Sequence record: PP129558
DNA: 64,000 nt
DNA from: Escherichia phage vB_EcoM_01
Direction: 5' to 3' (one strand)
Under the pieces are notes generated by a model. That model was not told where the DNA came from, ran no database searches, and was given only the letters and a program-made list of their open reading frames with translations. Positions 3,990-54,174 of the stretch are shown in pieces. The position numbers and the translations under genes were made by a program. Each line of letters begins with the position of its first letter. Within the stretch, counting starts at the first letter, position 1.

Positions 3990-5124
3990 TTAAAATTCTC
4001 CTCAATAAAAAGGGGCCGAAGCCCCTAGTTTCATCACATCTTGCAAGCTTCACAACCACCATCAGAATCTTCTTGTGCTAAAGAGTCTGCTGATTTTGTT
4101 CTACTATTAAGGTAATACAATGANNNNNNNNNNNNNNNNNNNNNNNNNNNNNNNNNNNNNNNNNNNNNNNNNNNNNNNNNNNNNNNNNNNNNNNNNNNNN
4201 NNNNNNNNNNNNNNNNNNNNNNNNNNNNNNNNNNNNNNNNNNNNNNNNNNNNNNNNNNNNNNNNNNNNNNNNNNNNNNNNNNNNNNNNNNNNNNNNNNNN
4301 NNNNNNNNNNNNNNNNNNNNNNNNNNNNNNNNNNNNNNNNNNNNNNNNNNNNNNNNNNNNNNNNNNNNNNNNNNNNNNNNNNNNNNNNNNNNNNNNNNNN
4401 NNNNNNNNNNNNNNNNNNNNNNNNNNNNNNNNNNNNNNNNNNNNNNNNNNNNNNNNNNNNNNNNNNNNNNNNNNNNNNNNNNNNNNNNNNNNNNNNNNNN
4501 NNNNNNNNNNNNNNNNNNNNNNNNNNNNNNNNNNNNNNNNNNNNNNNNNNNNNNNNNNNNNNNNNNNNNNNNNNNNNNNNNNNNNNNNNNNNNNNNNNNN
4601 NNNNNNNNNNNNNNNNNNNNNNNNNNNNNNNNNNNNNNNNNNNNNNNNNNNNNNNNNNNNNNNNNNNNNNNNNNNNNNNNNNNNNNNNNNNNNNNNNNNN
4701 NNNNNNNNNNNNNNNNNNNNNNNNNNNNNNNNNNNNNNNNNNNNNNNNNNNNNNNNNNNNNNNNNNNNNNNNNNNNNNNNNNNNNNNNNNNNNNNNNNNN
4801 NNNNNNNNNNNNNNNNNNNNNNNNNNNNNNNNNNNNNNNNNNNNNNNNNNNNNNNNNNNNNNNNNNNNNNNNNNNNNNNNNNNNNNNNNNNNNNNNNNNN
4901 NNNNNNNNNNNNNNNNNNNNNNNNNNNNNNNNNNNNNNNNNNNNNNNNNNNNNNNNNNNNNNNNNNNNNNNNNNNATTAATTGCTGCCATTTAAAATTCT
5001 CCTCAATAAAAAGGGGCCGAAGCCCCTAGTTTCATCACATCTTGCAAGCTTCACAACCACCATCAGAATCTTCTTGTGCTAAAGAGTCTGCTGATTTTGT
5101 TCTACTATTAAGGTAATACAATGA
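3973..5124. other. assembly gap: N run 4125-4975 flanked by identical ~150-bp sequence (3973-4124 = 4973-5124)
   Basis: Flanks are identical and each contains the nrdA stop, a terminator hairpin and the nrdB start; uncollapsed contig-end overlap. ORFs 4034..4990 and 4120..4980 are artefacts. Confidence 0.9.
5005..5027 (-). terminator. intrinsic terminator-like hairpin between nrdA and nrdB (duplicated at 4005-4027)
   Basis: Minus-strand RNA reads AGGGGCTTCGGCCCCT followed by TTTTTAT; GC stem with TTCG loop. Confidence 0.5.
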
Positions 5125-11114: not shown

Positions 11115-11155
11115 ATTTTTGTCAATAAAAAAGGGAGCAATAAGCTCCCTGATTA

Positions 11156-12115
11156 TTAGATTCCAATAATAGTTGCTGCTCGTTTATCTTTGGATCTGGT
11201 GTTTGCTCTACTACGTGACAAACCTCCACAAGATTCACAACGAATGATATCGAAAGAACTTACCGCAGTGTGGTATTGTTTACCAGTAACAACGTGAACG
11301 TGATCACTGCCACAACGAGAACAACGGACCTTCTCATCTGGGTAATAAGCGGATAAGTTAGGATGCTGTGGAATCCACGGAAGGATTTTCATATACAAAT
11401 CACGGAGCGAAACAACATCACCATCATTGTAAATCTGCATACGTTCAAAAGCATCACGATCACCTTCACAACATGCTTTCCATAAAGGGAACCCCTCGTT
11501 ATCCAGTTTTTCACTTTCTGTTTCGAAATATGCTCCCATTTCTTTAAGGGAATTGGAAGGAAGTGCAAATTGTTTCTTAGCTGCCTTCAATGTATCAACA
11601 ACTACATAATTAGAAGGAGGAGCCATATCGTGATATGCAAATCGTTGGTTAATGTATGCACGGTCAAACTTATATCCGTTGTGTGCCACAACTACATCTG
11701 CCTCATTCAGAAGGTTCCAAAGATCTTGGCAAAGCTCCCAATCATCTGTATGATCAATATCAAAAAGAGGATAAGAAGACAAGTTCTTACCTTCCACTTC
11801 ACCAGTATACAGGTCGGCAGAAGAGTAAGATAACAAATAACCCCTACGAATTACTTGATCTGGAGAAATGAAGGCTTTGAATCGACGGAAAGTATATGCA
11901 ATCTCTGGTGCAGTTTCAACATCAATAATTTTAATAACTGGTTGTTTCTTTTTAACTGGCTCTTGTTTACTTGCTCCGAATCGTGCAAGGAAATCGTTCA
12001 CTGTGCTTTTTCTTGTTGGACTACCTAAAACAATTGCTGCAATATTGCGAGAAGACATACCCTCTGCACTCATACTAAGGATATCTGCTTTCTGCTCTTC
12101 TGTTAATCTGCTCAC
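11156..12115 (-). CDS. DEDD-family 3-prime to 5-prime exonuclease with C-terminal zinc ribbon
   Basis: 319 aa; Exo I (IIDVETAPE), Exo II (HNGYKFD) and Exo III (YNDGDVVSLRDLY) motifs of DnaQ-like exonucleases; two CxxC pairs near the C-terminus. Confidence 0.55.
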   Translation of the reverse strand: MSRLTEEQKADILSMSAEGMSSRNIAAIVLGSPTRKSTVNDFLARFGASKQEPVKKKQPVIKIIDVETAPEIAYTFRRFKAFISPDQVIRRGYLLSYSSADLYTGEVEGKNLSSYPLFDIDHTDDWELCQDLWNLLNEADVVVAHNGYKFDRAYINQRFAYHDMAPPSNYVVVDTLKAAKKQFALPSNSLKEMGAYFETESEKLDNEGFPLWKACCEGDRDAFERMQIYNDGDVVSLRDLYMKILPWIPQHPNLSAYYPDEKVRCSRCGSDHVHVVTGKQYHTAVSSFDIIRCESCGGLSRSRANTRSKDKRAATIIGI

Positions 12116-12801
12116 TCTGCCTCCTGTTGCGAGATGTATGACTGAAGCATACTCTCAAATGTTGTATCGTCATTATCCCAGCGTTTCATGTATACCAACT
12201 GGAAAATTGTTTCTATCCATTCATCTGTTGTCATATGGACTTCTTCTCCATCCCAAGAAGTAAAATTAACACCATCTGGGAACCATGAGTAGTAAGTATC
12301 TTTAACTGTTTGGAAAAGTTCTGCTTGAGTTTTACAAGCTGAAAGAAGATTAAAACAAGTAATATCTCCGAACTTAATATCAAAATCTTGATAAGGTCGG
12401 ATACTATCTGTTTTATCTCCCATTAGCATCTGATATGCTAACCAGTAACTGCCCCAACCTTTAACTTCTTTCTTTTTACCTTTATCTACGATCCATATGT
12501 CGCCAATAGACTCGTCAATAAGAATTATATCTGGATTTTTAAATACTCCATCCTCTTTGTAGAAATTAAAAAGGATACTAGGAGTATGTAAACTATCTTT
12601 ATCTATAGATACAACGATATAAGAAAATTTACCCGTCCTTTTATAATCTTTATAACCTTGGAAACCATACTTCTCTAACTCATCATCAGCTTCTATTACA
12701 GTAACAACATCACCATTGTGGAACTCCACAAGATAATCTTTGGTTTCTGAAAGCTGGAGTGGTTTGATATCTAATCGTTCAGATTTATATTCTACAGGCA
12801 T
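12112..12801 (-). CDS. hypothetical protein; reading frame stays open upstream to 13239 without an ATG
   Basis: 229 aa from the first ATG; the same frame has no stop for another 146 codons upstream and no in-frame ATG/GTG/TTG, so the true start is unresolved. Confidence 0.4.
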   Translation of the reverse strand: MPVEYKSERLDIKPLQLSETKDYLVEFHNGDVVTVIEADDELEKYGFQGYKDYKRTGKFSYIVVSIDKDSLHTPSILFNFYKEDGVFKNPDIILIDESIGDIWIVDKGKKKEVKGWGSYWLAYQMLMGDKTDSIRPYQDFDIKFGDITCFNLLSACKTQAELFQTVKDTYYSWFPDGVNFTSWDGEEVHMTTDEWIETIFQLVYMKRWDNDDTTFESMLQSYISQQEAE

Positions 12802-13243
12802 TTTGAAGGCGTGTCTGAAAGTTTTTCCTACGCCAATAACTCCGCAATATTTTTCTAAACGTAGATGTTTTAGAATACCTAAGACTTTTGTTTTAGCTGC
12901 TTGGAAGGTGTGTCCGATATCTTCTGGCGGGTATTGCTTATCAATGATTTCGAACTCTTCCTTTGTGAAGGGACGTTTGTTTTTGGAGGCTCTTTCTGCA
13001 TTTGTATCTCCTAGCCAACCTCCAATTTTAGTCTTGCTTTTACCCCAAAACTCTGTCTTATTTTTAAATTCCTTTTGAGCACCTGAAGGGATGTGCTTCG
13101 CAATGATTGTTCTTTTCTCTAATGCAGACGCTGCTTGGAAAGCGATCTGATCGTAATCAATTGCAGCTATTGTTTCTTCGTTGACATATAAATGAAGATC
13201 TTCAGGTTTAATTAAAATATAACCGCTAATATTTCCCCCCTAA

Positions 13244-13453
13244 TTATTCATCGTCATCCTCTGTTGAGAATGTTTTAGTATACGGACATTGACGACTTTT
13301 CGGGATTGCTATAACTTCATCTTGGTTAGCGTTAGAATAGTAGCAATATTTTGTATTGCCATTAACTTCAGAATCAGACAAGATTAAAGTAATTTGACCT
13401 GCTGCTACTGTGAAACTAAAAGCTAAAAGAACGACTGTCAGAATCTTTTTCAT
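13244..13453 (-). CDS. small secreted protein (signal peptide)
   Basis: 69 aa; N-terminal MKKILTVVLLAFSFTVAAG hydrophobic signal-like segment; AGGAGG RBS immediately after the upstream terminator. Confidence 0.4.
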   Translation of the reverse strand: MKKILTVVLLAFSFTVAAGQITLILSDSEVNGNTKYCYYSNANQDEVIAIPKSRQCPYTKTFSTEDDDE

Positions 13454-13463
13454 AACGCCTCCT

Positions 13464-13492
13464 AAAAAGCCTACCTCATTAAGTAGGTAGGC
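13464..13492 (-). terminator. intrinsic terminator (minus strand)
   Basis: Perfect 8-bp stem GCCTACCT/AGGTAGGC followed by TTTTT on the minus strand, then the AGGAGG RBS of the next gene. Confidence 0.65.
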
Positions 13493-13525
13493 ATAATATC
13501 ATAACTAATCCCGCAAGTCAAGAAC

Positions 13526-14404
13526 TTATTTAAGGATTGTTGCTTTGGTTAAATCTTCCATCAGACCTCGAATCTCATTGAAGCACAGAAGGACCGAAGC
13601 TTCAATACTACCTTCTTCGTCTGCAAAATATTTCGGAAAACGTAGTTTAGAAAGTTTAAACTCTTTATCCACTACAAAATCTACAACACCGTCATATTCA
13701 AGACCGATTGCAACAACATCTTTACCATCTTCTTTTAGTTCGACAGCTTTAGACTCGTATAGGGATTCTTTACTCCAAACAACAACGCCCTCGCTATCCT
13801 CCATTTTGATATAATTTCCGAGAGTAATACGATCTGCTTCGTGATTCTCCAGCAATTCACCAAAACCTTTCACAATAGCTTCTTCATGCACACTAAAACC
13901 TACCGAAGGGAAAGTCCCCAGAACGGAACGGAGGAAAGAAGTAATCTCTTCTGCAACCTTTTTACTTCCATTAAGAACATAAAGAAGATTCGTAGTTTTA
14001 TCCAGAACCACATAATTGAAGAAATCTTCCGGTTCGGTTTCTGGGAGCAGACCAAATTCAATATCAGCTTTCAGGACTTTCATGTCTTCTTTAGCTACAA
14101 AGAATTCTTGGCCTTGGCTTTCCATATCTACTCGAATTTCTTCCAGGCGTTCATTAAGAAGACGTTTAACTTTCTTCTTGTCAACTTTCTTAACAGATTG
14201 ACCAACCTGGAGGAGTTCCAGATCGGAGAACTCTTTTACGTATTTCCCATCATCTTCAAAACGAACCAGACCAATAGTATGGGCTTGAGATCCTTCGGCA
14301 GGTACAAAGTCAATCGGAAATTCGTTGAACTCGTTCAGAGACGCTACAGAAGCATTATCACCAGCAACCATCGGAAGTGCAGATTTAAAAGATTTAACGA
14401 ACAT
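13526..14404 (-). CDS. RdgC-like recombination-associated protein (tentative)
   Basis: 292 aa; length and residue pattern (LLP..F, V.D..S.K.AE, LR.SLG..P) loosely resemble RdgC as recalled from memory; not searched. Confidence 0.35.
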   Translation of the reverse strand: MFVKSFKSALPMVAGDNASVASLNEFNEFPIDFVPAEGSQAHTIGLVRFEDDGKYVKEFSDLELLQVGQSVKKVDKKKVKRLLNERLEEIRVDMESQGQEFFVAKEDMKVLKADIEFGLLPETEPEDFFNYVVLDKTTNLLYVLNGSKKVAEEITSFLRSVLGTFPSVGFSVHEEAIVKGFGELLENHEADRITLGNYIKMEDSEGVVVWSKESLYESKAVELKEDGKDVVAIGLEYDGVVDFVVDKEFKLSKLRFPKYFADEEGSIEASVLLCFNEIRGLMEDLTKATILK

Positions 14405-21351: not shown

Positions 21352-22003
21352 TTCTTTTTGCTCCTCTTTTTAGATTTCTCATACAAACCTAACACAGCCG
21401 CTTCTTTTGCACAAGTAGGAACTGAAGTCATTCCTCTTCTTTTTGCTTCTGGCAGTTGCAAAGTCCATATTCNGTCTCTTATNNNNNNNNNNNNNNNNNN
21501 NNNNNNNNNNNNNNNNNNNNNNNNNNNNNNNNNNNNNNNNNNNNNNNNNNNNNNNNNNNNNNNNNNNNNNNNNNNNNNNNNNNNNNNNNNNNNNNNNNNN
21601 NNNNNNNNNNNNNNNNNNNNNNNNNNNNNNNNNNNNNNNNNNNNNNNNNNNNNNNNNNNNNNNNNNNNNNNNNNNNNNNNNNNNNNNNNNNNNNNNNNNN
21701 NNNNNNNNNNNNNNNNNNNNNNNNNNNNNNNNNNNNNNNNNNNNNNNNNNNNNNNNNNNNNNNNNNNNNNNNNNNNNNNNNNNNNNNNNNNNNNNNNNNN
21801 NNNNNNNNNNNNNNNNNNNNNNNNNNNNNNNNNNNNNNNNNNNNAGAGACAGCTTTTACACACTTCAGGAAAGTCTTGATCATTTCTTTTTGCTCCTCTT
21901 TTTAGATTTCTCATACAAACCTAACACAGCCGCTTCTTTTGCACAAGTAGGAACTGAAGTCATTCCTCTTCTTTTTGCTTCTGGCAGTTGCAAAGTCCAT
22001 ATT
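21331..22003. other. assembly gap: N run 21481-21844 flanked by ~140-bp duplicated sequence
   Basis: Flanks near 21331-21473 and 21861-22003 are identical, with ambiguous bases beside the Ns; ORFs made of X codons are artefacts. Confidence 0.9.
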
Positions 22004-24495: not shown

Positions 24496-24570
24496 GGCCC
24501 TGTAGCTCAATGGGAGAGCTGTCGGCTCATAACCGATAGGTAGCTGGATCGAAACCAGCCAGGGCCACCA
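24496..24570 (+). tRNA. tRNA with CAT anticodon (Met or Ile2)
   Basis: Manual fold: acceptor GGCCCTG/CAGGGCC, D stem GCTC/GAGC, anticodon loop CTCATAA, T arm GCTGG-ATCGAAA-CCAGC, encoded CCA. Confidence 0.7.
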
Positions 24571-24572
24571 AC

Positions 24573-24647
24573 GTCTTTATGGTGTAATGGATAGCACAGG
24601 AGTCTTCTAAACTCTTAGTCAAGGTTCGATTCCTTGTAAAGACACCA
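24573..24647 (+). tRNA. tRNA-Arg (anticodon TCT)
   Basis: Acceptor GTCTTTA/TAAAGAC, anticodon loop CTTCTAA, T arm CAAGG-TTCGATT-CCTTG, encoded CCA. Confidence 0.75.
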
Positions 24648-24650
24648 GAA

Positions 24651-24831
24651 CATTTTAACATGAATTAGCTCAAGTGATTTGAACCCACTACTGATCATGG
24701 TGGCAGAGAATGAGGCAAGTATGTCAGACATTATAAACAAAGGCCACGGTTATATTAGAAGACATAAATGCTCGAAGAGCACCGTTCGTGGAGAGCGGGG
24801 GTTGGTGGAGTCACCATTCATGGTAAAATGT
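24651..24831 (+). ncRNA. candidate structured RNA (~180 nt) closed by a 17-bp long-range stem
   Basis: AACATTTTAACATGAAT (24651-24667) pairs with ATTCATGGTAAAATGTT (24815-24831) with one mismatch; between two tRNAs; the 63-aa ORF inside is probably not coding. Confidence 0.3.
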
Positions 24832-24843
24832 TTTAAAAAACTA

Positions 24844-24872
24844 TTGACAACTAACATTATTTTATGTTAGAT
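24844..24872 (+). promoter_or_regulatory. candidate promoter (TTGACA-N17-TTAGAT) ahead of tRNA-Ser
   Basis: Consensus -35 hexamer; the tRNA 5-prime end at 24882 is at a plausible distance from the -10. Confidence 0.4.
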
Positions 24873-24881
24873 TATAAGTAT

Positions 24882-24972
24882 GGAAGGGCAAATCGACGTG
24901 GCGACGAAAACGGTCTTGAAAACCGCCGAGCTTGAAAGAGCCTTGGGAGTTCGACTCTCCCTCCTTCCGCCA
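24882..24972 (+). tRNA. tRNA-Ser (anticodon TGA), type II
   Basis: Acceptor GGAAGGG/TCCTTCC, anticodon loop CTTGAAA, long variable arm, T arm GGGAG-TTCGACT-CTCCC, encoded CCA. Confidence 0.65.
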
Positions 24973-24977
24973 GATTA

Positions 24978-25063
24978 GGTAGATTGGTGAAATGGTAGCC
25001 ACGACAGTTTGCTAAACTGTAGTCGGAAACGGCGTGTAGGTTCGAGTCCTACATCTACCGCCA
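24978..25063 (+). tRNA. tRNA-Ser (anticodon GCT), type II
   Basis: Acceptor GGTAGAT/ATCTACC, anticodon stem ACAGT/ACTGT with loop TTGCTAA, long variable arm, T arm GTAGG-TTCGAGT-CCTAC, CCA. Confidence 0.65.
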
Positions 25064-25193
25064 AGTTCTTTTTAATGTAGCTTACTTTAGCAGAGTAAAT
25101 CTTCGGCAAGTGGCGGTAACCACTTTACCGATACCTCATAGTTAGTGGTGAGAACACTGGCTATTTTAAAAAGAATTTAAATATTAGTATTTA

Positions 25194-25281
25194 GGTGAGT
25201 TAATTCCGTAGGGGTAGCGGGGCAGACTGTAAATCTGTTATCATTGCGATTCGGGTGGTTCGACTCCATCACTCACCACCA
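25194..25281 (+). tRNA. tRNA-Tyr (anticodon GTA), type II
   Basis: Acceptor GGTGAGT/ACTCACC, anticodon loop CTGTAAA, long variable arm, T loop TTCGACT, CCA. Confidence 0.6.
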
Positions 25282-25287
25282 AATTAA

Positions 25288-25373
25288 GATGAGTTGGCTG
25301 AATGGTTTAAGCGGCGGACTGTTAATCCGTGTTCGAAAGAACAATATAGGTTCGAATCCTATACTCATCGCCA
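25288..25373 (+). tRNA. atypical type II tRNA whose anticodon loop parses as GTT
   Basis: Perfect acceptor GATGAGT/ACTCATC, T arm ATAGG-TTCGAAT-CCTAT, CCA; best anticodon arm GCGGA-CTGTTAA-TCCGT gives GTT, yet there is a 15-nt variable arm with its own GTTC-GAAA-GAAC hairpin. Confidence 0.4.
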
Positions 25374-25380
25374 GAATTAT

Positions 25381-25457
25381 GGACTTGTAGAGTTAAGGTA
25401 AACCCCCAGTCGCCAATAGGCTTCTGGAATTGCAGGTATCGAATCCTGCCGAGTCCC
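25381..25457 (+). ncRNA. tRNA-like element with aberrant anticodon arm (possible tRNA pseudogene)
   Basis: Acceptor GGACTTG/CGAGTCC and T arm GCAGG...CCTGC (8-nt loop) are present, but the anticodon region forms a bulged hairpin with an AATA tetraloop; no CCA. Confidence 0.3.
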
Positions 25458-25463
25458 AGCATT

Positions 25464-25538
25464 GCTCCTATAGTATAATGGCTATTACAACGGTTTTGTA
25501 ATCCGTGGATCTCTGTTCGATTCAGTGTGGGAGCACCA
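25464..25538 (+). tRNA. tRNA-Thr (anticodon TGT)
   Basis: Acceptor GCTCCTA/TGGGAGC, anticodon loop TTTGTAA, T loop TTCGATT, CCA. Confidence 0.6.
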
Positions 25539-25811
25539 ACACAACATTAAGAGCACTGTGATTGATCGTCGTATCCTGTGCACAAGGTCTGCTCGAAAGA
25601 CAGTGTTCTTAGTATTGTGTTGATCACAAAAAGAGTCACCCGAAACTTGACCGGAGTAGGGTTGGATGGGGCAAAATGAGAAGCGGCTCTCCCATCGACA
25701 GCAACGAAGAATAATATTTGACTTTGGTTTTGTATTATTTTAAGTTAGCTTACCGAACGTAGGGCTAGTCACCCAACGGGATACTCGTCACTGTCCCAAT
25801 CAATAAAAGTC

Positions 25812-25841
25812 TTGACAACAAATAGTAAAATGTAGTATAGT
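25812..25841 (+). promoter_or_regulatory. sigma70-like promoter (TTGACA-N18-TATAGT) ahead of tRNA-Gly
   Basis: Consensus -35 and near-consensus -10; the tRNA 5-prime end is 12 nt downstream. Confidence 0.55.
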
Positions 25842-25852
25842 AAATATATAGG

Positions 25853-25926
25853 GCGTTCTTGGTGTAGCGGTAGCATTCCGTCCTTCCAAGTCGGCGGCAC
25901 GAGTTCGATCCTCGTAGAACGCTCCA
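25853..25926 (+). tRNA. tRNA-Gly (anticodon TCC)
   Basis: Acceptor GCGTTCT/AGAACGC, anticodon loop CTTCCAA, T arm ACGAG-TTCGATC-CTCGT, CCA. Confidence 0.6.
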
Positions 25927-26024
25927 AATTATTTAATAAAGGGTTGCCAGAAAACTTTCTCTTTTACTCATGGTTTTCTCCTTCTCTCACACTTCTTCTG
26001 GTTGCCCTTCATTAAATGATTTAT

Positions 26025-26100
26025 TGGTTTGTAGTGTAGTCCGGTAGCACACGACACTTTGACTGTCGTAGGTTTGGTTCAAATCCAGACAGACCAGCCA
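26025..26100 (+). tRNA. tRNA-Gln (anticodon TTG)
   Basis: Acceptor TGGTTTG/CAGACCA, anticodon stem CGACA/TGTCG with loop CTTTGAC, T loop TTCAAAT, CCA. Confidence 0.7.
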
Positions 26101-26270
26101 TATAACGGAATTTAGCTCAGTTTGGTAGAGCGTACGCTTTGGGAGCGTAGGGTCGCAGGTTCGAATCCTGCAATNCNGACAGACCAGCCATATAACGGAA
26201 TTTAGCTCAGTTTGGTAGAGCGTACGCTTTGGGAGCGTAGGGTCGCAGGTTCGAATCCTGCAATTCCGAC
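26091..26270. repeat. 90-bp tandem duplication with ambiguous bases at the junction (26175, 26177), duplicating tRNA-Pro
   Basis: 26091-26180 equals 26181-26270 apart from ncn; copy 1 of tRNA-Pro (26106-26180) is 3-prime degraded by the ambiguous bases; probably a consensus artefact. Confidence 0.7.
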
Positions 26271-26272
26271 CA
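26196..26272 (+). tRNA. tRNA-Pro (anticodon TGG)
   Basis: Acceptor CGGAATT/AATTCCG, anticodon stem TACGC/GCGTA with loop TTTGGGA, T arm GCAGG-TTCGAAT-CCTGC, CCA. Confidence 0.7.
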
Positions 26273-26278
26273 ATTAAA

Positions 26279-26352
26279 TGTTTCGTAGTTCAATGGTAGA
26301 ACCCACGACTGATAATCGTGAGACACAAGTTCGATTCTTGTCGAAACAACCA
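26279..26352 (+). tRNA. tRNA-Ile (anticodon GAT)
   Basis: Acceptor TGTTTCG/CGAAACA, anticodon stem CACGA/TCGTG with loop CTGATAA, T arm ACAAG-TTCGATT-CTTGT, CCA. Confidence 0.75.
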
Positions 26353-26354
26353 GT

Positions 26355-26424
26355 TTCCCGTTAGACTTACAGGATAAGAGATCCACAATTTATTGTGACG
26401 CTGGTTCGAATCCAGCACGGGATA
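26355..26424 (+). ncRNA. tRNA-like element with tetraloop in place of an anticodon loop
   Basis: Perfect T arm GCTGG-TTCGAAT-CCAGC and a 6/7 acceptor pairing, but the central arm is CACAA-TTTA-TTGTG (4-nt loop); CC without A at the 3-prime end. Confidence 0.3.
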
Positions 26425-26430
26425 CCTAAT

Positions 26431-26509
26431 AGCGGGATAGAGGAGTCTGGTCGTCCTCGCCAGTTTCATATGCTGGAGATCATTGGTTCAAATCCAATTC
26501 CCGCCTCCA
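26431..26509 (+). tRNA. second tRNA with CAT anticodon (Met or Ile2); A1-C72 mismatch
   Basis: Acceptor AGCGGGA/TCCCGCC (position 1-72 unpaired), D stem GAGG/CCTC, anticodon stem CCAGT/GCTGG with loop TTCATAT, T arm ATTGG-TTCAAAT-CCAAT, CCA; lacks the three G-C pairs of an initiator anticodon stem. Confidence 0.6.
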
Positions 26510-45190: not shown

Positions 45191-45817
45191 ATGGGAATCC
45201 CTTTTGACTTAAAACTTGGGCCAAACAACGACCTCATCATGGATGATGGGGATTTGGTCCTCACTACAACCAGAACAGAAATTGCAGCACAAACTCTTGG
45301 GATAACTCTGAACACGTATCGTGGGGAGTGGTTTTTAAATACTAACTTCGGTGTTCCTTACTTACAAGAGATTATTGGTGTTGCCAGAAAGAAAGATATT
45401 GTAGACAGAATATTTTTAGCAGAGATTGCCAAAAACGTTTACATAGATACAATAAACAGTTATAAATCTGCTTATGATATGGATCAACGTTATTACTCAA
45501 TGACAGTTATGGTCACAGTTGGAGCAGATACAGTAACATCTATATTCAATACTCAACCTTCTGAAGAGTTTATTTACCCTGAAGCTGGTGAAGACAATGC
45601 AGCGATCATTTGTGAAGCTTACAGTATTGTTGAGAATTCGAATAGACTTTATCGCTTTATCAACTTTGTTGGTTTGCCACGTGATACCTACTCTACTTGG
45701 TGGAATGAATGGTCTACAGAGTCAGCAGTGGAAAGAATCATGGTTAACGAAAAAGGTGATGCATTAGCTACAAACAATAATTTCGGTATAACAGCTATGA
45801 CAGGAGTAGAAGAGTAA
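45191..45817 (+). CDS. baseplate protein (tentative)
   Basis: 208 aa; N-terminal NDLIMDDGDLVL pattern reminiscent of small baseplate proteins. Confidence 0.3.
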   Translation: MGIPFDLKLGPNNDLIMDDGDLVLTTTRTEIAAQTLGITLNTYRGEWFLNTNFGVPYLQEIIGVARKKDIVDRIFLAEIAKNVYIDTINSYKSAYDMDQRYYSMTVMVTVGADTVTSIFNTQPSEEFIYPEAGEDNAAIICEAYSIVENSNRLYRFINFVGLPRDTYSTWWNEWSTESAVERIMVNEKGDALATNNNFGITAMTGVEE

Positions 45818-46290
45818 TGGCAGATTTAACTACGATCAAAATTTCTGATCTTACACAAACAACCTCTGTGTCTGATACAGATTTCTTTGTAACAGATCAG
45901 GCTGGAATAACAAAGAAAACTTCTTTGAAAGTGCTGTTGAGTGGTGCAGGGGTAACTAGAAACCGTCTGAATGCACGGGGAACAGTAACTAGCACCTTGG
46001 CATTAGATATTAGTTCGGCAGAATATTTTTCAGCAACTTTATCTTCTGCAACGTGCACAATTAGTTTTACTAATATTCCAGTAGCAACAAATGCAGTTTT
46101 AAACTTTACTTTAGCTTTGCGTCAAGGAAGTGGTGCAAATAAAGTCGTATGGCCTTCTTCTGTAAAATGGAGTTTTGGTCGTTCCCCAGTTTTGAGTTAT
46201 CGTCAAGGTGCAACAGACACTTTTGAGTTTATCAGTTATGATAATGGAGCAACTTGGACAGGTAGCTTAGTTTTAGCAGGAGTTATTTAA
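45817..46290 (+). CDS. hypothetical tail protein
   Basis: 157 aa; ATGA coupling. Confidence 0.3.
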   Translation: MADLTTIKISDLTQTTSVSDTDFFVTDQAGITKKTSLKVLLSGAGVTRNRLNARGTVTSTLALDISSAEYFSATLSSATCTISFTNIPVATNAVLNFTLALRQGSGANKVVWPSSVKWSFGRSPVLSYRQGATDTFEFISYDNGATWTGSLVLAGVI

Positions 46291-49166
46291 TGTCAAGAGT
46301 TAAGCACAATATTGACAACACGTTTCAGTTGATTGAAGGGTTGGTTCAGTTTTTGGAAAGAAATACTGGGCTTACCATAGATCCTACGGTTCAGCATTAC
46401 ATTATCAACCCACAAAACGTATTGGCGAACAACAGACACTTTATTAACTGGACAGCGCAGGAAGGGCAACCAAACGGTGACGCTACTACCGAAGGTCAAT
46501 CTGTGCTTATCACTGGTTTTGCTTATGCATATTTGGCTACAGGGGATAAAAAATATCTTGAATCTGCCGAGAAGTATTGGCAAGCCTATATAGATCACTT
46601 CTTCGGGGGCCAACCTATTCCTGATCCTCCGGCTAAGTATCGTCCCAACTGGATCATCAATGGTAAAGAACCACGTTTAGCACATTACCCTCTCACAGAT
46701 GATGGGTATCCTACGCACGGCGGGTTCAAAGGTAGCATGATGACTTGGATTAACGGAAGGACTGTTATTCCTAAAGGTGCACCGCATTGGGGGGAATACT
46801 TAGATAAAGCTTGGTTTGCTTTCAATGGCAATCTTGGTTGGAACTCCGTTAACGCAACAGTTTATGCAACTAACCCAGATGGTTCAACCAACTGGAAAGA
46901 ATATGGAGATCAGTGGGACGTTGAATGGATTATAGACCGTCTAGGACGTAAAGTTGATTGGGATGGTAACATTTTATCTACTGGTCATAGCTTTGCAGAA
47001 TATGGAACAGTGCAACTTAAAAATGCTTCTGTGAACGGGGACTATAAATTCAACTACGCTACATGCAATCCTGTAGAACACGGTGGATATCTGCTTAAGC
47101 GTAATGAGATGTGGCATAACCGTCCTGTAAACGTTCCGGTAGAGTTAGGCTATCAAGATAATGCTTCCGATGCTGAAACGTGGTGGTGTGATGCAAACTA
47201 CTTGATGTATCAGATCACAGGAGAGAGAAAATACTGGCTTTGCTGGCAATCTTCTTTATTGTTGTGTCAAGACTACTCAAACATCGATATGTTTGATAAA
47301 TTCTTCCGTAGATCTACGACAGCAATAATTCCTTTTACAGATGGTATCTCGTATGATTACTCATACCCATCTACAGCAATACCTAAATATTCTCGTGACG
47401 AATTAGGATACACAGTAATTCGCCAAGATGTTTCAGCACAAACAACTCTAGAACAACAGGCAGTTTGGTTCAGAGTAGATCAGAATTCAAAACTGCGTAT
47501 TGAGTTTCAAGGTGTAGATGATGCAGGGGAAGGTGTTCTTTTCCGTCCAGAGCTAGAATTAAGCAAAACTAAGAGTGAAACAGACACAGTGACATATCGT
47601 TGTGGCTTACCTCTTGGTGCAGCTAATATGACTAAGATGGATATACCTTTATCTAGTTTTATGCGCACCGAACCTCCTGGAGGTGGTGTATATATTATTG
47701 CTGAACCCAGAATTATTGTTGACTGGGGAAGCAATACTGTGATACAATATAAATATGCAACTGGTATTGCTGGGACAAATAGTGATCAGATAGTTTCTGC
47801 TAATATGGATTCAGATGGTGGTTTTACTGTTGGGTTTTGGTTAACACCAACTAAAACAGCCAATTTAAAATCTATTACATATCGTTCATACGCAGATGAT
47901 TTTAACATCACTATTACGGATTCAGCAGGTTGGAGATGGTGGGCCATGTTAGAAAAAACAAATTCTGCATGGGTTACTAAAGCTTTAAGTCCTGCTGATT
48001 TCAAATTAAGTACTTGGCAACCTAATCACAATGACACAGAGACAAAACCTTCGTCAATAAACTTGACTACTGTTGATCAGATCAACATTGCATTGGATTC
48101 TGAACCTGCAAATGGCTTGACAGGGGCAATCGACTTTTATTGCGTTAACGATATCCCATCTTTGTATTCTTCAGCCGCTGGCGATGATTACACAATGTAT
48201 TTCAGGGTTACAGTTTCATCTGAAAATCCTTATACAGCAAAACTTGGAGATTGTACAATACTGGACTACAAACTTGACAGTTTGAATTATACTCCAGGAA
48301 TCATTCCATTTTCCAATATTAGTGATCCTAACACAGCATTATATGACGGTTGGCGTGGTATTCCTTACCCAGGTTATCAATACCCATCCTTATATTGTTT
48401 TAAAGGGAGAGATATTGACTGGGTTCGTATGAACAACAGTATAGACTTTTTATATGATTCACAAATGTGGTTTTATAATAAGTTTGCCCCTGTGATGCCT
48501 GGGCCAATGGCACAAGCTTATGTTTGGGATCGTTGGGATGCTCATAAATATGGAAACAAGAATGAGTTCACAATGTATCATTGGAACGATAAAGCTTGGG
48601 ATGGTTATGAAGCACGAGCATTCTTCTGTGCGTGTCATACAGTATACGAACTGAAACAACGAGGAGCAGAAGTTCCTGAAAAACTTTTAACAGTTTGTAA
48701 AAACTGGATCAACTATCTGAAGTGGTTCCAAGACAACAACGAAGGAAGAACACCAACAATATTTTATCCCGATGGAGAAGTGGCTGCGCCTGTAGATGAC
48801 TTTACAAGTCACATGTCTGCGCTCTTTATGGCGGGATGTGCTATAATGGGGATGGCTGGATATGATTCAGAAATTCCTAACATTAAAATAGTAGCAGATC
48901 GCTGTTTTGAACTTATTCAGGAAAATTATATTGTTCTTGGTCCTAATCACGTTATGAATGGTTGTTGGAGTGCTGCCCCTAGACCAGACAGTGATAACGG
49001 AGTCTTCTTTGGCTTCCACGCCGGAGAGTTGTTACGTGGTTTTGGGTTGTATGCCTTATACAAAAAACTTAATCCCCAAAATGCATTACCTGTTTTGGAT
49101 TCGAGCAATATTCCTGCACTTACTGTTTTGACAATGGCAAACATTAGTGTGGACGTTACCGAGTAA
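46290..49166 (+). CDS. large tail fibre or tailspike-like protein
   Basis: 958 aa; W/Y/N/G-rich; size and position in the tail module; no domain assignable by eye. Confidence 0.4.
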   Translation: MSRVKHNIDNTFQLIEGLVQFLERNTGLTIDPTVQHYIINPQNVLANNRHFINWTAQEGQPNGDATTEGQSVLITGFAYAYLATGDKKYLESAEKYWQAYIDHFFGGQPIPDPPAKYRPNWIINGKEPRLAHYPLTDDGYPTHGGFKGSMMTWINGRTVIPKGAPHWGEYLDKAWFAFNGNLGWNSVNATVYATNPDGSTNWKEYGDQWDVEWIIDRLGRKVDWDGNILSTGHSFAEYGTVQLKNASVNGDYKFNYATCNPVEHGGYLLKRNEMWHNRPVNVPVELGYQDNASDAETWWCDANYLMYQITGERKYWLCWQSSLLLCQDYSNIDMFDKFFRRSTTAIIPFTDGISYDYSYPSTAIPKYSRDELGYTVIRQDVSAQTTLEQQAVWFRVDQNSKLRIEFQGVDDAGEGVLFRPELELSKTKSETDTVTYRCGLPLGAANMTKMDIPLSSFMRTEPPGGGVYIIAEPRIIVDWGSNTVIQYKYATGIAGTNSDQIVSANMDSDGGFTVGFWLTPTKTANLKSITYRSYADDFNITITDSAGWRWWAMLEKTNSAWVTKALSPADFKLSTWQPNHNDTETKPSSINLTTVDQINIALDSEPANGLTGAIDFYCVNDIPSLYSSAAGDDYTMYFRVTVSSENPYTAKLGDCTILDYKLDSLNYTPGIIPFSNISDPNTALYDGWRGIPYPGYQYPSLYCFKGRDIDWVRMNNSIDFLYDSQMWFYNKFAPVMPGPMAQAYVWDRWDAHKYGNKNEFTMYHWNDKAWDGYEARAFFCACHTVYELKQRGAEVPEKLLTVCKNWINYLKWFQDNNEGRTPTIFYPDGEVAAPVDDFTSHMSALFMAGCAIMGMAGYDSEIPNIKIVADRCFELIQENYIVLGPNHVMNGCWSAAPRPDSDNGVFFGFHAGELLRGFGLYALYKKLNPQNALPVLDSSNIPALTVLTMANISVDVTE

Positions 49167-51336: not shown

Positions 51337-54174
51337 ATGTCAACTACAATTACTAATTTACCCGAAACATCAAAAGTTAATGATTCTGATTACCTGGTTT
51401 TAGACCAACCTGATAAGACTGTTAAAAGCACAGTTTCCAACTTTCTTACTGACACTGGGGTGGTTTTAGCCACCCAGTTGAAAGNNNNANNNGGGNCTGA
51501 GTTAATAGGACACAGAAACGCTACGGTTGGTGCCACTCTGGATTCAATTGCAGTCCGCTCAGATCAATTTTCTACTATTCAGGAATGGGCATCATACCCG
51601 GCAAAGAATAAAATTTTAGCGGAGGGTACTTATACTCTTGACTCAACTCNTNNNNGTGTTGAATGTGAATCACTAACCACTGAGGGTGTAGTTANNNNNN
51701 NNNNNNNNNNNNNNNNNNNNNNNNNNNNNNNNNNNNNNNNNNNNNNNNNNNNNNNNNNNNNNNNNNNNNNNNNNNNNNNNNNNNNNNNNNNNNNNNNNNN
51801 NNNNNNNNNNNNNNNNNNNNNNNNNNNNNNNNNNNNNNNNNNNNNNNNNNNNNNNNNNNNNNNNNNNNNNNNNNNNNNNNNNNNNNNNNNNNNNNNNNNN
51901 NNNNNNNNNNNNNNNNNNNNNNNNNNNNNNNNNNNNNNNNNNNNNNNNNNNNNNNNNNNNNNNNNNNNNNNNNNNNNNNNNNNNNNNNNNNNNNNNNNNN
52001 NNNNNNNNNNNNNNNNNNNNNNNNNNNNNNNNNNNNNNNNNNNNNNNNNNNNNNNNNNNNNNNNNNNNNNNNNNNNNNNNNNNNNNNNNNNNNNNNNNNN
52101 NNNNNNNNNNNNNNNNNNNNNNNNNNNNNNNNNNNNNNNNNNNNNNNNNNNNNNNNNNNNNNNNNNNNNNNNNNNNNNNNNNNNNNNNNNNNNNNNNNNN
52201 NNNNNNNNNNNNNNNNNNNNNNNNNNNNNNNNNNNNNNNNNNNNNNNNNNNNNNNNNNNNNNNNNNNNNNNNNNNNNNNNNNNNNNNNNNNNNNNNNNNN
52301 NNNNNNNNNNNNNNNNNNNNNNNNNNNNNNNNNNNNNNNNNNNNNNNNNNNNNNNNNNNNNNNNNNNNNNNNNNNNNNNNNNNNNNNNNNNNNNNNNNNN
52401 NNNNNNNNNNNNNNNNNNNNNNNNNNNNNNNNNNNNNNNNNNNNNNNNNNNNNNNNNNNNNNNNNNNNNNNNNNNNNNNNNNNNNNNNNNNNNNNNNNNN
52501 NNNNNNNNNNNNNNNNNNNNNNNNNNNNNNNNNNNNNNNNNNNNNNNNNNNNNNNNNNNNNNNNNNNNNNNNNNNNNNNNNNNNNNNNNNNNNNNNNNNN
52601 NNNNNNNNNNNNNNNNNNNNNNNNNNNNNNNNNNNNNNNNNNNNNNNNNNNNNNNNNNNNNNNNNNNNNNNNNNNNNNNNNNNNNNNNNNNNNNNNNNNN
52701 NNNNNNNNNNNNNNNNNNNNNNNNNNNNNNNNNNNNNNNNNNNNNNNNNNNNNNNNNNNNNNNNNNNNNNNNNNNNNNNNNNNNNNNNNNNNNNNNNNNN
52801 NNNNNNNNNNNNNNNNNNNNNNNNNNNNNNNNNNNNNNNNNNNNNNNNNNNNNNNNNNNNNNNNNNNNNNNNNNNNNNNNNNNNNNNNNNNNNNNNNNNN
52901 NNNNNNNNNNNNNNNNNNNNNNNNNNNNNNNNNNNNNNNNNNNNNNNNNNNNNNNNNNNNNNNNNNNNNNNNNNNNNNNNNNNNNNNNNNNNNNNNNNNN
53001 NNNNNNNNNNNNNNNNNNNNNNNNNNNNNNNNNNNNNNNNNNNNNNNNNNNNNNNNNNNNNNNNNNNNNNNNNNNNNNNNNNNNNNNNNNNNNNNNNNNN
53101 NNNNNNNNNNNNNNNNNNNNNNNNNNNNNNNNNNNNNNNNNNNNNNNNNNNNNNNNNNNNNNNNNNNNNNNNNNNNNNNNNNNNNNNNNNNNNNNNNNNN
53201 NNNNNNNNNNNNNNNNNNNNNNNNNNNNNNNNNNNNNNNNNNNNNNNNNNNNNNNNNNNNNNNNNNNNNNNNNNNNNNNNNNNNNNNNNNNNNNNNNNNN
53301 NNNNNNNNNNNNNNNNNNNNNNNNNNNNNNNNNNNNNNNNNNNNNNNNNNNNNNNNNNNNNNNNNNNNNNNNNNNNNNNNNNNNNNNNNNNNNNNNNNNN
53401 NNNNNNNNNNNNNNNNNNNNNNNNNNNNNNNNNNNNNNNNNNNNNNNNNNNNNNNNNNNNNNNNNNNNNNNNNNNNNNNNNNNNNNNNNNNNNNNNNNNN
53501 NNNNNNNNNNNNNNNNNNNNNNNNNNNNNNNNNNNNNNNNNNNNNNNNNNNNNNNNNNNNNNNNNNNNNNNNNNNNNNNNNNNNNNNNNNNNNNNNNNNN
53601 NNNNNNNNNNNNNNNNNNNNNNNNNNNNNNNNNNNNNNNNNNNNNNNNNNNNNNNNNNNNNNNNNNNNNNNNNNNNNNNNNNNNNNNNNNNNNNNNNNNN
53701 NNNNNNNNNNNNNNNNNNNNNNNNNNNNNNNNNNNNNNNNNNNNNNNNNNNNNNNNNNNNNNNNNNNNNNNNNNNNNNNNNNNNNNNNNNNNNNNNNNNN
53801 NNNNNNNNNNNNNNNNNNNNNNNNNNNNNNNNNNNNNNNNNNNNNNNNNNNNNNNNNNNNNNNNNNNNNNNNNNNNNNNNNNNNNNNNNNNNNNNNNNNN
53901 NNNNNNNNNNNNNNNNNNNNNNNNNNNNNNNNNNNNNNNNNNNNNNNNNNNNNNNNNNNNNNNNNNNNNNNNNNNNNNNNNNNNNNNNNNNNNNNNNNNN
54001 NNGGTTATCTATGATAAGGAGACGCAAAGGGCGTATTCCCTACCTGCTGATATTGCCCCAGGTACTACTGCCATTAGTCTTAGTGCTGCTGTACTTGTGC
54101 ATTCGGCGGGTTCTGTAGACCTTGGGGAATTAGCTGTATCTTGTGATTTAAAAAGTAATGAGAACACACTATGA
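51337..54174 (+). CDS. tail fibre protein interrupted by an assembly gap
   Basis: N-terminus MSTTITNLPETSKVNDSDYLVLD is fibre-like; the interior is an N run, so length and frame continuity are unknown. Confidence 0.35.
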   Translation: MSTTITNLPETSKVNDSDYLVLDQPDKTVKSTVSNFLTDTGVVLATQLKXXXGXELIGHRNATVGATLDSIAVRSDQFSTIQEWASYPAKNKILAEGTYTLDSTXXXVECESLTTEGVVXXXXXXXXXXXXXXXXXXXXXXXXXXXXXXXXXXXXXXXXXXXXXXXXXXXXXXXXXXXXXXXXXXXXXXXXXXXXXXXXXXXXXXXXXXXXXXXXXXXXXXXXXXXXXXXXXXXXXXXXXXXXXXXXXXXXXXXXXXXXXXXXXXXXXXXXXXXXXXXXXXXXXXXXXXXXXXXXXXXXXXXXXXXXXXXXXXXXXXXXXXXXXXXXXXXXXXXXXXXXXXXXXXXXXXXXXXXXXXXXXXXXXXXXXXXXXXXXXXXXXXXXXXXXXXXXXXXXXXXXXXXXXXXXXXXXXXXXXXXXXXXXXXXXXXXXXXXXXXXXXXXXXXXXXXXXXXXXXXXXXXXXXXXXXXXXXXXXXXXXXXXXXXXXXXXXXXXXXXXXXXXXXXXXXXXXXXXXXXXXXXXXXXXXXXXXXXXXXXXXXXXXXXXXXXXXXXXXXXXXXXXXXXXXXXXXXXXXXXXXXXXXXXXXXXXXXXXXXXXXXXXXXXXXXXXXXXXXXXXXXXXXXXXXXXXXXXXXXXXXXXXXXXXXXXXXXXXXXXXXXXXXXXXXXXXXXXXXXXXXXXXXXXXXXXXXXXXXXXXXXXXXXXXXXXXXXXXXXXXXXXXXXXXXXXXXXXXXXXXXXXXXXXXXXXXXXXXXXXXXXXXXXXXXXXXXXXXXXXXXXXXXXXXXXXXXXXXXXXXXXXXXXXXXXXXXXXXXXXXXXXXXXXXXXXXXXXXXXXXXXXXXXXXXXXXXXXXXXXXXXXXXXXXXXXXXXXXXXXXXXXXXXXXXXXVIYDKETQRAYSLPADIAPGTTAISLSAAVLVHSAGSVDLGELAVSCDLKSNENTL
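51485..54002. other. assembly gap: scattered ambiguous bases (51485-51655) and N run 51695-54002
   Basis: Runs of n in the sequence; the ORFs across it on both strands are artefacts. Confidence 0.95.

Follow-up and report, generated by a model that had tools for sequence, protein, structure and literature searches.

Background

Initiation at AUU, AUC or AUA reaches roughly 1–2% of the AUG level in one survey and lies about 6–8 times below AUG in a reporter study, and initiation factor 3 (IF3) discriminates against this class of codons (PMC5499595, PMC3592434). Across bacteria, infC starts with AUU or AUC, and its product IF3 autoregulates the gene (PMC5499595, PMC3592434), and pcnB uses AUU to limit its expression (cited in PMC3592434, reference 6). 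We have analyzed a stretch of 64,000 nucleotides (nt) of Escherichia phage vB_EcoM_01 (sequence record PP129558), referred to below as the window, in which a long reading frame lacks any ATG, GTG or TTG codon at or near its beginning. We conclude, with a probability of about 0.85, that positions 13230..12112 of the minus strand (372 codons plus a TGA stop) form one intact gene that starts at ATT and encodes a 372-residue 5'-3' exonuclease of the flap endonuclease (FEN) type. In Escherichia coli, infC and pcnB are said to be the only two genes that start with AUU.

Like E. coli infC, the phage gene has a near-cognate start codon that deviates at the third position (AUU or AUC) and is conserved over orthologues, a Shine-Dalgarno (SD) sequence upstream, and an upstream stop codon close by. 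Unlike infC, it is a phage nuclease gene and not a translation factor, no autoregulatory loop is apparent, and AUA and CUG also occur in its clade. It resembles E. coli pcnB, which encodes poly(A) polymerase I, in placing AUU on a nucleic-acid enzyme that is plausibly harmful in excess, where the codon is presumed to throttle translation; unlike in pcnB, the case for the phage gene rests on comparison, and the two proteins are unrelated. Non-canonical initiation of this type is already known, and here it would occur on a FEN-family phage exonuclease.

In the Vequintavirinae, rV5 ORF94 and PVP-SE1 gp123, both named 'exodeoxyribonuclease', are full-length orthologues with 37–42% identity, the same N-terminus position and the same SD spacing. 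They start at TTG and GTG, respectively, codons that are canonical though weaker than ATG, whereas the window gene has ATT. ESCO13_00118 has the same ATT start and the same protein as the window, and is known there as a database gene model only. At the level of the superfamily, the window exonuclease is grouped with T5 D15, T4 RNase H, the 5'-nuclease domain of Pol I, E. coli ExoIX and the T7 gene 6 family.

Results

An open frame without a canonical start codon

All features under study lie on the minus strand, and residues are numbered with the proposed ATT start as residue 1. An earlier note on this DNA had pointed out that the frame of an open reading frame (ORF) at 12112..12801 stays open upstream to 13239 with no stop and no ATG, GTG or TTG, and direct reading of the 146 codons concerned (13239..12802) verified this. 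The complete open frame (13239..12112) is opened by an in-frame TAG (13242..13240, read from the sequence), and the TAA stop of a 69-amino-acid (aa) ORF (13246..13244) ends 4 nt before position 13239. Together with a TGA at 13250..13248, these two codons close all three frames just upstream.

The same note had judged so long an open stretch unlikely to arise by chance, and the numbers bear this out. The probability of 146 stop-free codons is about 2e-5 at the base composition of the region and 3e-4 at that of the window, and the probability of meeting no canonical start in 143 coding codons is about 3e-3 under the codon usage of 50 long window ORFs. This is the longest open stretch before a first canonical start within the window. 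Seven other window stretches of at least 40 codons before a canonical start gave no PHROG evidence of a hidden N-terminal extension, and the missing-start phenomenon is specific to the exonuclease gene within the window. The distance from the proposed start to the first in-frame canonical codon ranges from 9 to 195 codons among relatives. Because canonical codons occur in relatives from 9 codons on, the total absence of ATG, GTG and TTG over 143 codons is a trait of some lineages and not of the family, and the idea that this absence is itself selected is unsupported.

The upstream codons encode conserved protein

In comparisons with six diverged relatives, the extension upstream of position 12801 shows a proportion of nonsynonymous differences (pN) of 0.16–0.26 against a proportion of synonymous differences (pS) of 0.65–0.80, the latter near saturation, and the C-terminal part behaves much alike. 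Against a close relative, the differences in the extension number 0, 0 and 5 at the first, second and third codon positions. The extension is under purifying selection. A tblastn search with the 375-aa frame matched 1214 phage records, 900 of which cover at least 80% of it, among them rV5, PVP-SE1, ICP1 and PaP1 at 27–42% identity, and the extension itself is conserved down to 25–30% identity in distant phages. The 375-codon translation matches phrog_107 ('exonuclease') with an E value of 9.9e-56 over residues 13–370, and the extension alone matches the same family with an E value of 5.2e-7.

Proposed start codon and ribosome-binding site

After the TAG, the frame reads GGG GGA AAT ATT AGC GGT TAT. 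The proposed start, ATT at 13230..13228, is the first near-cognate codon that the frame meets beyond the TAG and lies 4 nt past the GGGGG core of a strong SD sequence, AGGGGGG (13241..13235), which includes a G6 homopolymer (13240..13235). The duplex of this SD sequence with the anti-SD of 16S rRNA has an energy of -10.9 kcal/mol, the 7th strongest among 57 window genes, which themselves start with ATG (43), GTG (10) or TTG (4). The stop codon of the 69-aa ORF is 13 nt before the ATT. The G run falls within the ribosome-binding site and outside the coding sequence (CDS); it is G6 in the window and G5 in all six Phapecoctavirus relatives that were read at the start (phAPEC8, ev052, iGC_PHA_EC001, EF1-1, ESCO13 and the IMG/VR locus L008), and the downstream protein is the same in these six G5 relatives. 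RNA structure around the start did not differ from that of shuffled sequence (z -0.43). The ATT at 13230 aligns with the annotated starts of rV5 ORF94 (AGGAGGG-TCT-TTG AGT) and PVP-SE1 gp123 (GAGAGGG-CTA-GTG GGA), and we infer that it is the codon actually used.

The start region across relatives

Relatives were drawn from IMG/VR, JGI/ENA metagenomes and Logan assemblies, the start region of each was read, and clustering at 95% identity gave 25 lineages with 46–100% amino-acid identity to the window protein. The homologous start codon is ATT in nine lineages, ATC in eight, ATA in six, CTG in one and TTG in one, and in none is it ATG or GTG. The TTG lineage (L094) is the most distant; the other 24 have no in-frame ATG, GTG or TTG between the upstream stop and the conserved coding sequence. 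Every one of the 25 lineages carries a GGAGG, GGGGG or GGAGA core with the in-frame start-position codon 4–5 nt later. The SD sequence of relatives is AGGAGG or AGGGGG at the same spacing, with duplex energies of -7.3 to -13.6 kcal/mol over the clade.

The peptide right after the start position is conserved as well (ISGYILI, ISHKFNTIS and similar). In L019, L080, L081 and L083 an in-frame TAA immediately precedes the ATC, so that initiation further upstream is impossible there. A canonical codon that follows a few codons downstream, such as the ATG nine codons on in L074–L076, has no SD sequence; the peptide preceding it, I-[ST]-x-[KE]-F-[NK]-T-I-S, is conserved, which indicates that it is translated. 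The earlier note had listed non-AUG initiation, a homopolymer error hiding the true start, and a decaying gene as options without ranking them. The first of these is favored by the placement of ATT 4 nt past a strong SD sequence and by ATT, ATC, ATA or CTG at the homologous codon in 24 of the 25 lineages; the other two are weighed below, and both fail.

On a neighbour-joining tree the start codon has changed at least nine times, mostly by third-base exchanges of T, C and A, and the consistent lack of ATG and GTG suggests selection against ATG at the start position. In L077 (Logan SRR7990610 contig, around position 735), the CTG stands right after the TAA of the upstream HNH gene (AGGAGGTAAC CTG). 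Since two substitutions separate this codon from ATT, the L077 lineage may have passed via ATG or CTT.

More distant orthologues of the Vequintavirinae type (rV5 and PVP-SE1 groups) have ATG, GTG or TTG at the aligned position. Across L006 and L043 (rV5 group), L007 and L032 (PVP-SE1 group), L030, L037, L038 and L044, TTG and GTG starts are about as frequent as ATG, which makes them far commoner than among window genes overall. A bias toward weak start codons may thereby reach beyond the clade that uses AUU, AUC or AUA (AUH).

The upstream gene ends 1–18 nt before the start in every clade member examined, and its stop is often inside or abutting the SD sequence (TAGGAGG). Most close relatives have a small ORF in this position, with a gap of 8–18 nt from stop to start and a frame offset of 0, 1 or 2. 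In more distant members the upstream gene is swapped for a methyltransferase (L074) or an HNH endonuclease (L077).

Nuclease family, fold and active site

AlphaFold2, run with a 31-sequence alignment, predicted that all 372 residues form one unit (predicted local distance difference test score, pLDDT, 94.8; predicted template modelling score, pTM, 0.88) with the PIN-like alpha/beta fold of the 5'-nuclease domain. In this model, the extension forms part of the nuclease fold. Profile alignment with hhalign matched residues 103–308 to the 5'-nuclease domain of Taq polymerase (93% probability, E 3e-7); the Taq query sequence was verified against 1TAQ, and the T5 D15 query was 100% identical to T5 records. 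The Taq alignment begins 41 residues before Met144. Against T5 D15, Y148, K149 and R152 pair with T5 Y82, K83 and R86; E180, D182 and D183 with T5 E128, D130 and D131; D210 and D212 with T5 D153 and D155; and D272 and D275 with T5 D201 and D204. These paired motif residues are invariant or nearly so among 31 homologues.

Asp25 (codon 13156..13158) lies within the extension and is invariant in the alignment of 31 homologues. In the model it stands at the end of a strand (residues 16–25) that is followed by a helix. From motif and topology, Asp25 would be the first metal-binding, catalytic aspartate of the FEN site, equivalent to T5 D26 and Taq D18. An hhalign comparison of the family profile with T5 D15 residues 1–70, made to place Asp25 on T5 Asp26, gave no usable alignment. 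Compared with the FEN family, the window exonuclease has an insertion of about 60 residues that separates its first strand from the FRH/YK region, lacks the equivalent of T5 Asp68 and stays below Pfam thresholds, and its nuclease activity is a prediction. The position of the second-strand aspartate (T5 Asp68, Taq Asp67) is occupied by Val134 (GVIGVGKTFRH). Sequence and profile searches of the PDB found nothing relevant.

Most database annotations start the protein at the ATG of Met144 (12801..12799), which gives a 229-aa model. Met144 falls centrally within the conserved nuclease core, with the FRH motif on one side and the YK motif on the other, and its position is leucine in many homologues. 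The 229-aa model is without part of this core and without the invariant Asp25, and the ATG has no SD sequence upstream (duplex energy +0.4 kcal/mol).

Alternative explanations

Several points weigh against a single FEN-type gene that starts at ATT 13230. From sequence alone, the in-frame ATT codons at codon 5 (13218..13216) and codon 7 (13212..13210) could also serve as starts, and the choice of ATT 13230 rests on comparison and SD geometry. The lack of a third-base G over at least seven T/C/A changes has, by our own estimate, a chance probability of roughly (2/3)^7 = 0.06, which is only suggestive. The replacement of T5 Asp68 by Val134 means that the chemistry of the metal site may differ from that of classical FENs. 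Pfam scans of the full, N-terminal and C-terminal proteins gave no meaningful match, PF02739 and PF01367 included, and five distant homologues scanned singly reached 24–28 bits against the PF02739 cut-off of 34.3; eight of the 31 homologues do match PF02739, with E values down to 1.7e-6. Finally, the ESCO13 genome paper (PMC5374246) is silent on the ATT start. Use of either downstream ATT is nevertheless improbable. Both codons are present, and relatives conserve isoleucine at the first; their distances from the SD core, 16 and 22 nt, are beyond the reach of SD-directed placement, whereas the codon at 13230 holds a spacing of 4–5 nt in 25 lineages and lines up with the canonical rV5 and PVP-SE1 starts, and residues 5–7 form a modelled beta strand. 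A possible but less favored variant, which does not contradict a start at ATT 13230, is that this codon is reached chiefly by termination-reinitiation, the nuclease depending on translation of the upstream gene over free 30S binding. The short distance to the upstream stop, kept even where the upstream gene is a methyltransferase or an HNH endonuclease, points in this direction, as does the infC-type UAA-GGU-AUU junction, where about half of the yield is ascribed to re-initiation (PMC3592434). Set against this, the strong and well-spaced SD sequence is conserved, as de novo initiation requires, and tight packing is normal in phage genomes, so that proximity alone is uninformative.

The readings that deny a gene starting near 13230 are all very unlikely. 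Were the true gene the 229-residue ORF from ATG 12801, the 146 upstream codons would be non-coding or decayed remains. About 60 GenBank and RefSeq records annotate that ORF, and a 229-aa protein cluster is found on 385 contigs; yet purifying selection on the extension and its conservation to 25–30% identity in distant phages argue strongly against it, as do the missing SD sequence, the unconserved Met144, the position of the ATG inside the nuclease core and the loss of Asp25. Moreover, automatic callers choose a different first canonical codon in each relative (229–373 aa), the signature of an artefact. The earlier note had held that orthologues beginning at this ATG, with unconserved upstream sequence, would speak for the shorter gene. 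Most database orthologues do carry annotations that begin at the ATG, but protein-level conservation extends into the upstream sequence, and these annotations are therefore truncations and not counter-evidence. Its suggestion of a decaying gene does not survive the purifying selection, the conservation in 900 phage records and the confident single-domain fold. Still less credible is a sequencing error in the G homopolymer that masks a canonical start or a fusion with the upstream ORF. The difference between G6 in the window and G5 in six relatives does show that the run length is variable or error-prone, but the 11 nt ahead of the run contain TGA, TAA and TAG, one in each frame, with no ATG, GTG or TTG after them. 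Since all three frames are closed in GATGAATAATTAG and no canonical start lies beyond, no length of the G run can expose a start or a fusion; the downstream protein is identical with G5 or G6, and the arrangement recurs in more than 60 genomes that were sequenced independently. The idea that programmed frameshifting, stop-codon read-through or ribosome hopping joins the exonuclease to the small protein encoded upstream has hardly more in its favor: the G run adjoins a stop codon, and a database protein (P0005, 444 aa) resembles such a fusion, but relatives differ in the frame offset of the two ORFs (0, 1 or 2), L074 and L077 have another gene upstream, and stops close all frames. P0005 itself (L072, Logan SRR30397360 contig, gene 1501–2835) proved to be an artefact in which a TAG in the contig was read as glutamine by the gene caller; the L072 locus does not translate to the P0005 query, and its DNA has a normal TAG stop. 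Gene calls made with an alternative genetic code (TAG as glutamine) probably introduce false fusions into large protein collections.

Proposed initiation and possible regulation

For the gene starting at ATT 13230..13228, established knowledge holds that the initiator tRNA would read the ATT, and the protein would then begin with fMet. The strong AGGGGGG sequence 4 nt upstream would position the ribosome and may compensate in part for the weakness of the codon. Initiation is probably supplemented by ribosomes coming from the stop codon of the 69-aa ORF, 13 nt upstream; with upstream stops 1–18 nt before the start and often inside the SD sequence, termination-reinitiation likely contributes. 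A weak start codon would hold nuclease output down, plausibly to keep a DNA-cutting enzyme at a small and controlled dose. By analogy with infC and pcnB, the AUU start should make nuclease synthesis sensitive to IF3. The expression level, the share of coupling and the IF3 dependence are predictions.

A bolder proposal, which we hold as tentative and rather doubtful, is that selection keeps an AUH start (AUU, AUC or AUA, never AUG) clade-wide as a regulatory device. Such a start could act as an infC-like sensor of the host IF3-to-ribosome ratio, or alternatively could enforce strict dependence of a potentially harmful flap nuclease on translation of the upstream gene. If true, a virus would supply the second case of a non-canonical start codon that is conserved throughout a family and has a regulatory role. 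With AUU, AUC or AUA in 23 of the 25 lineages and a near-perfect SD sequence, the exonuclease family offers a natural system for the study of weak-start dosing and timing of a DNA-cutting enzyme, and for testing IF3 discrimination on phage mRNAs.

Database annotation

A 3.5-kb stretch around the open frame has 95–96% identity to about 60 Phapecoctavirus genomes (phAPEC8, ESCO13, Schickermooser and others), and by this sequence identity the window is a Phapecoctavirus (phAPEC8-like coliphage). In ESCO13 (KX552041.2 / NC_047770.1) a CDS at 45700..46818 is annotated from the same ATT, together with a ribosome-binding-site feature, and its product ESCO13_00118 (AQM50955.1 / YP_009786567.1; UniRef100_A0A1Q1N971) is identical to the 372-aa window protein. 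UniRef holds 12 identical Phapecoctavirus entries for this protein. Annotations were surveyed in 60 entries listed of the 64 records that hold the stretch at 95% identity or more. Among the 60 entries listed, a gene model covers the N-terminal part in the ESCO13 pair (GenBank and RefSeq) and in no other; the remaining entries have nothing there, a spurious small ORF, or no annotation. In related phages, gene callers take the first canonical codon and yield proteins of 229–373 aa; in ECGD1, for instance, the annotated start is a GTG located 31 codons inside the open frame.

A search of the literature for the start codon of this exonuclease gene, or for Phapecoctavirus together with start codon, found no description. 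What appears to be new is the clade-wide AUH start with a strong SD sequence at fixed spacing, present in 23 of the 25 lineages (24 with CUG). Nearly all Phapecoctavirus entries examined, and many metagenomic gene calls, contain an exonuclease that is truncated or starts at an arbitrary codon. The truncated form spreads into protein databases, as the occurrence of the 229-aa form on 385 contigs illustrates, and callers restricted to ATG, GTG and TTG will repeat the truncation.

Genomic context

The local gene order begins with an RdgC-like gene (14404..13526), which is followed by the 69-aa ORF (13453..13244; phrog_4641) directly upstream of the exonuclease. The gene directly downstream (12115..11156; phrog_403) encodes a DNA polymerase 3'-5' exonuclease subunit with an RNase_H_2 domain, and its GTG start overlaps the exonuclease stop as GTGA. 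A consensus scan found a sigma-70-like promoter with 10 of 12 matches at 13521..13493 (TTGACT-17-TATTAT, with an extended -10 TG). Pattern matching placed a terminator-like hairpin with a T5 tail directly after it, at 13492..13469, ahead of the SD sequence and ATG of the 69-aa ORF, and the next strong terminator-like hairpin at 11150..11132, after the third gene. Going by these pattern matches, the promoter probably drives a three-gene unit of the small ORF, the exonuclease and the polymerase-exonuclease subunit. The hairpin at 13492..13469 would lie at the 5' end of a transcript from this promoter; alternatively, it could end transcripts arriving from the RdgC gene.

Across most of the clade (loci L014–L027, L072 and L073), the small upstream ORF encodes 64–82 aa and belongs to phrog_4641, with a signal-peptide-like N-terminus and an acidic C-terminus (...TFSTEDDDE).

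The window contains 3538 N bases, in masked stretches at 4124–4975, 21483–21844 and 51695–54002 and as isolated N at 21473, 26175, 26177 and within 51485–51655. Long 'ORFs' that span the N stretches are artefacts, and no N stretch overlaps the exonuclease gene.

A phage cluster of 11 tRNAs occupies 24496–26509. One of these (26431–26509, plus strand, 79 nt, anticodon CAT) carries at the top of its acceptor stem the A1xC72 mismatch that characterizes initiator tRNAs; its anticodon stem does not have the three G:C pairs found in initiators. Another tRNA with anticodon CAT (24496–24570, plus strand) has the acceptor stem GGCCCTG/CAGGGCC, similar to that of E. coli tRNA-Ile2 (ileX), and this tRNA may be an AUA-reading isoleucine tRNA instead of a methionine tRNA.

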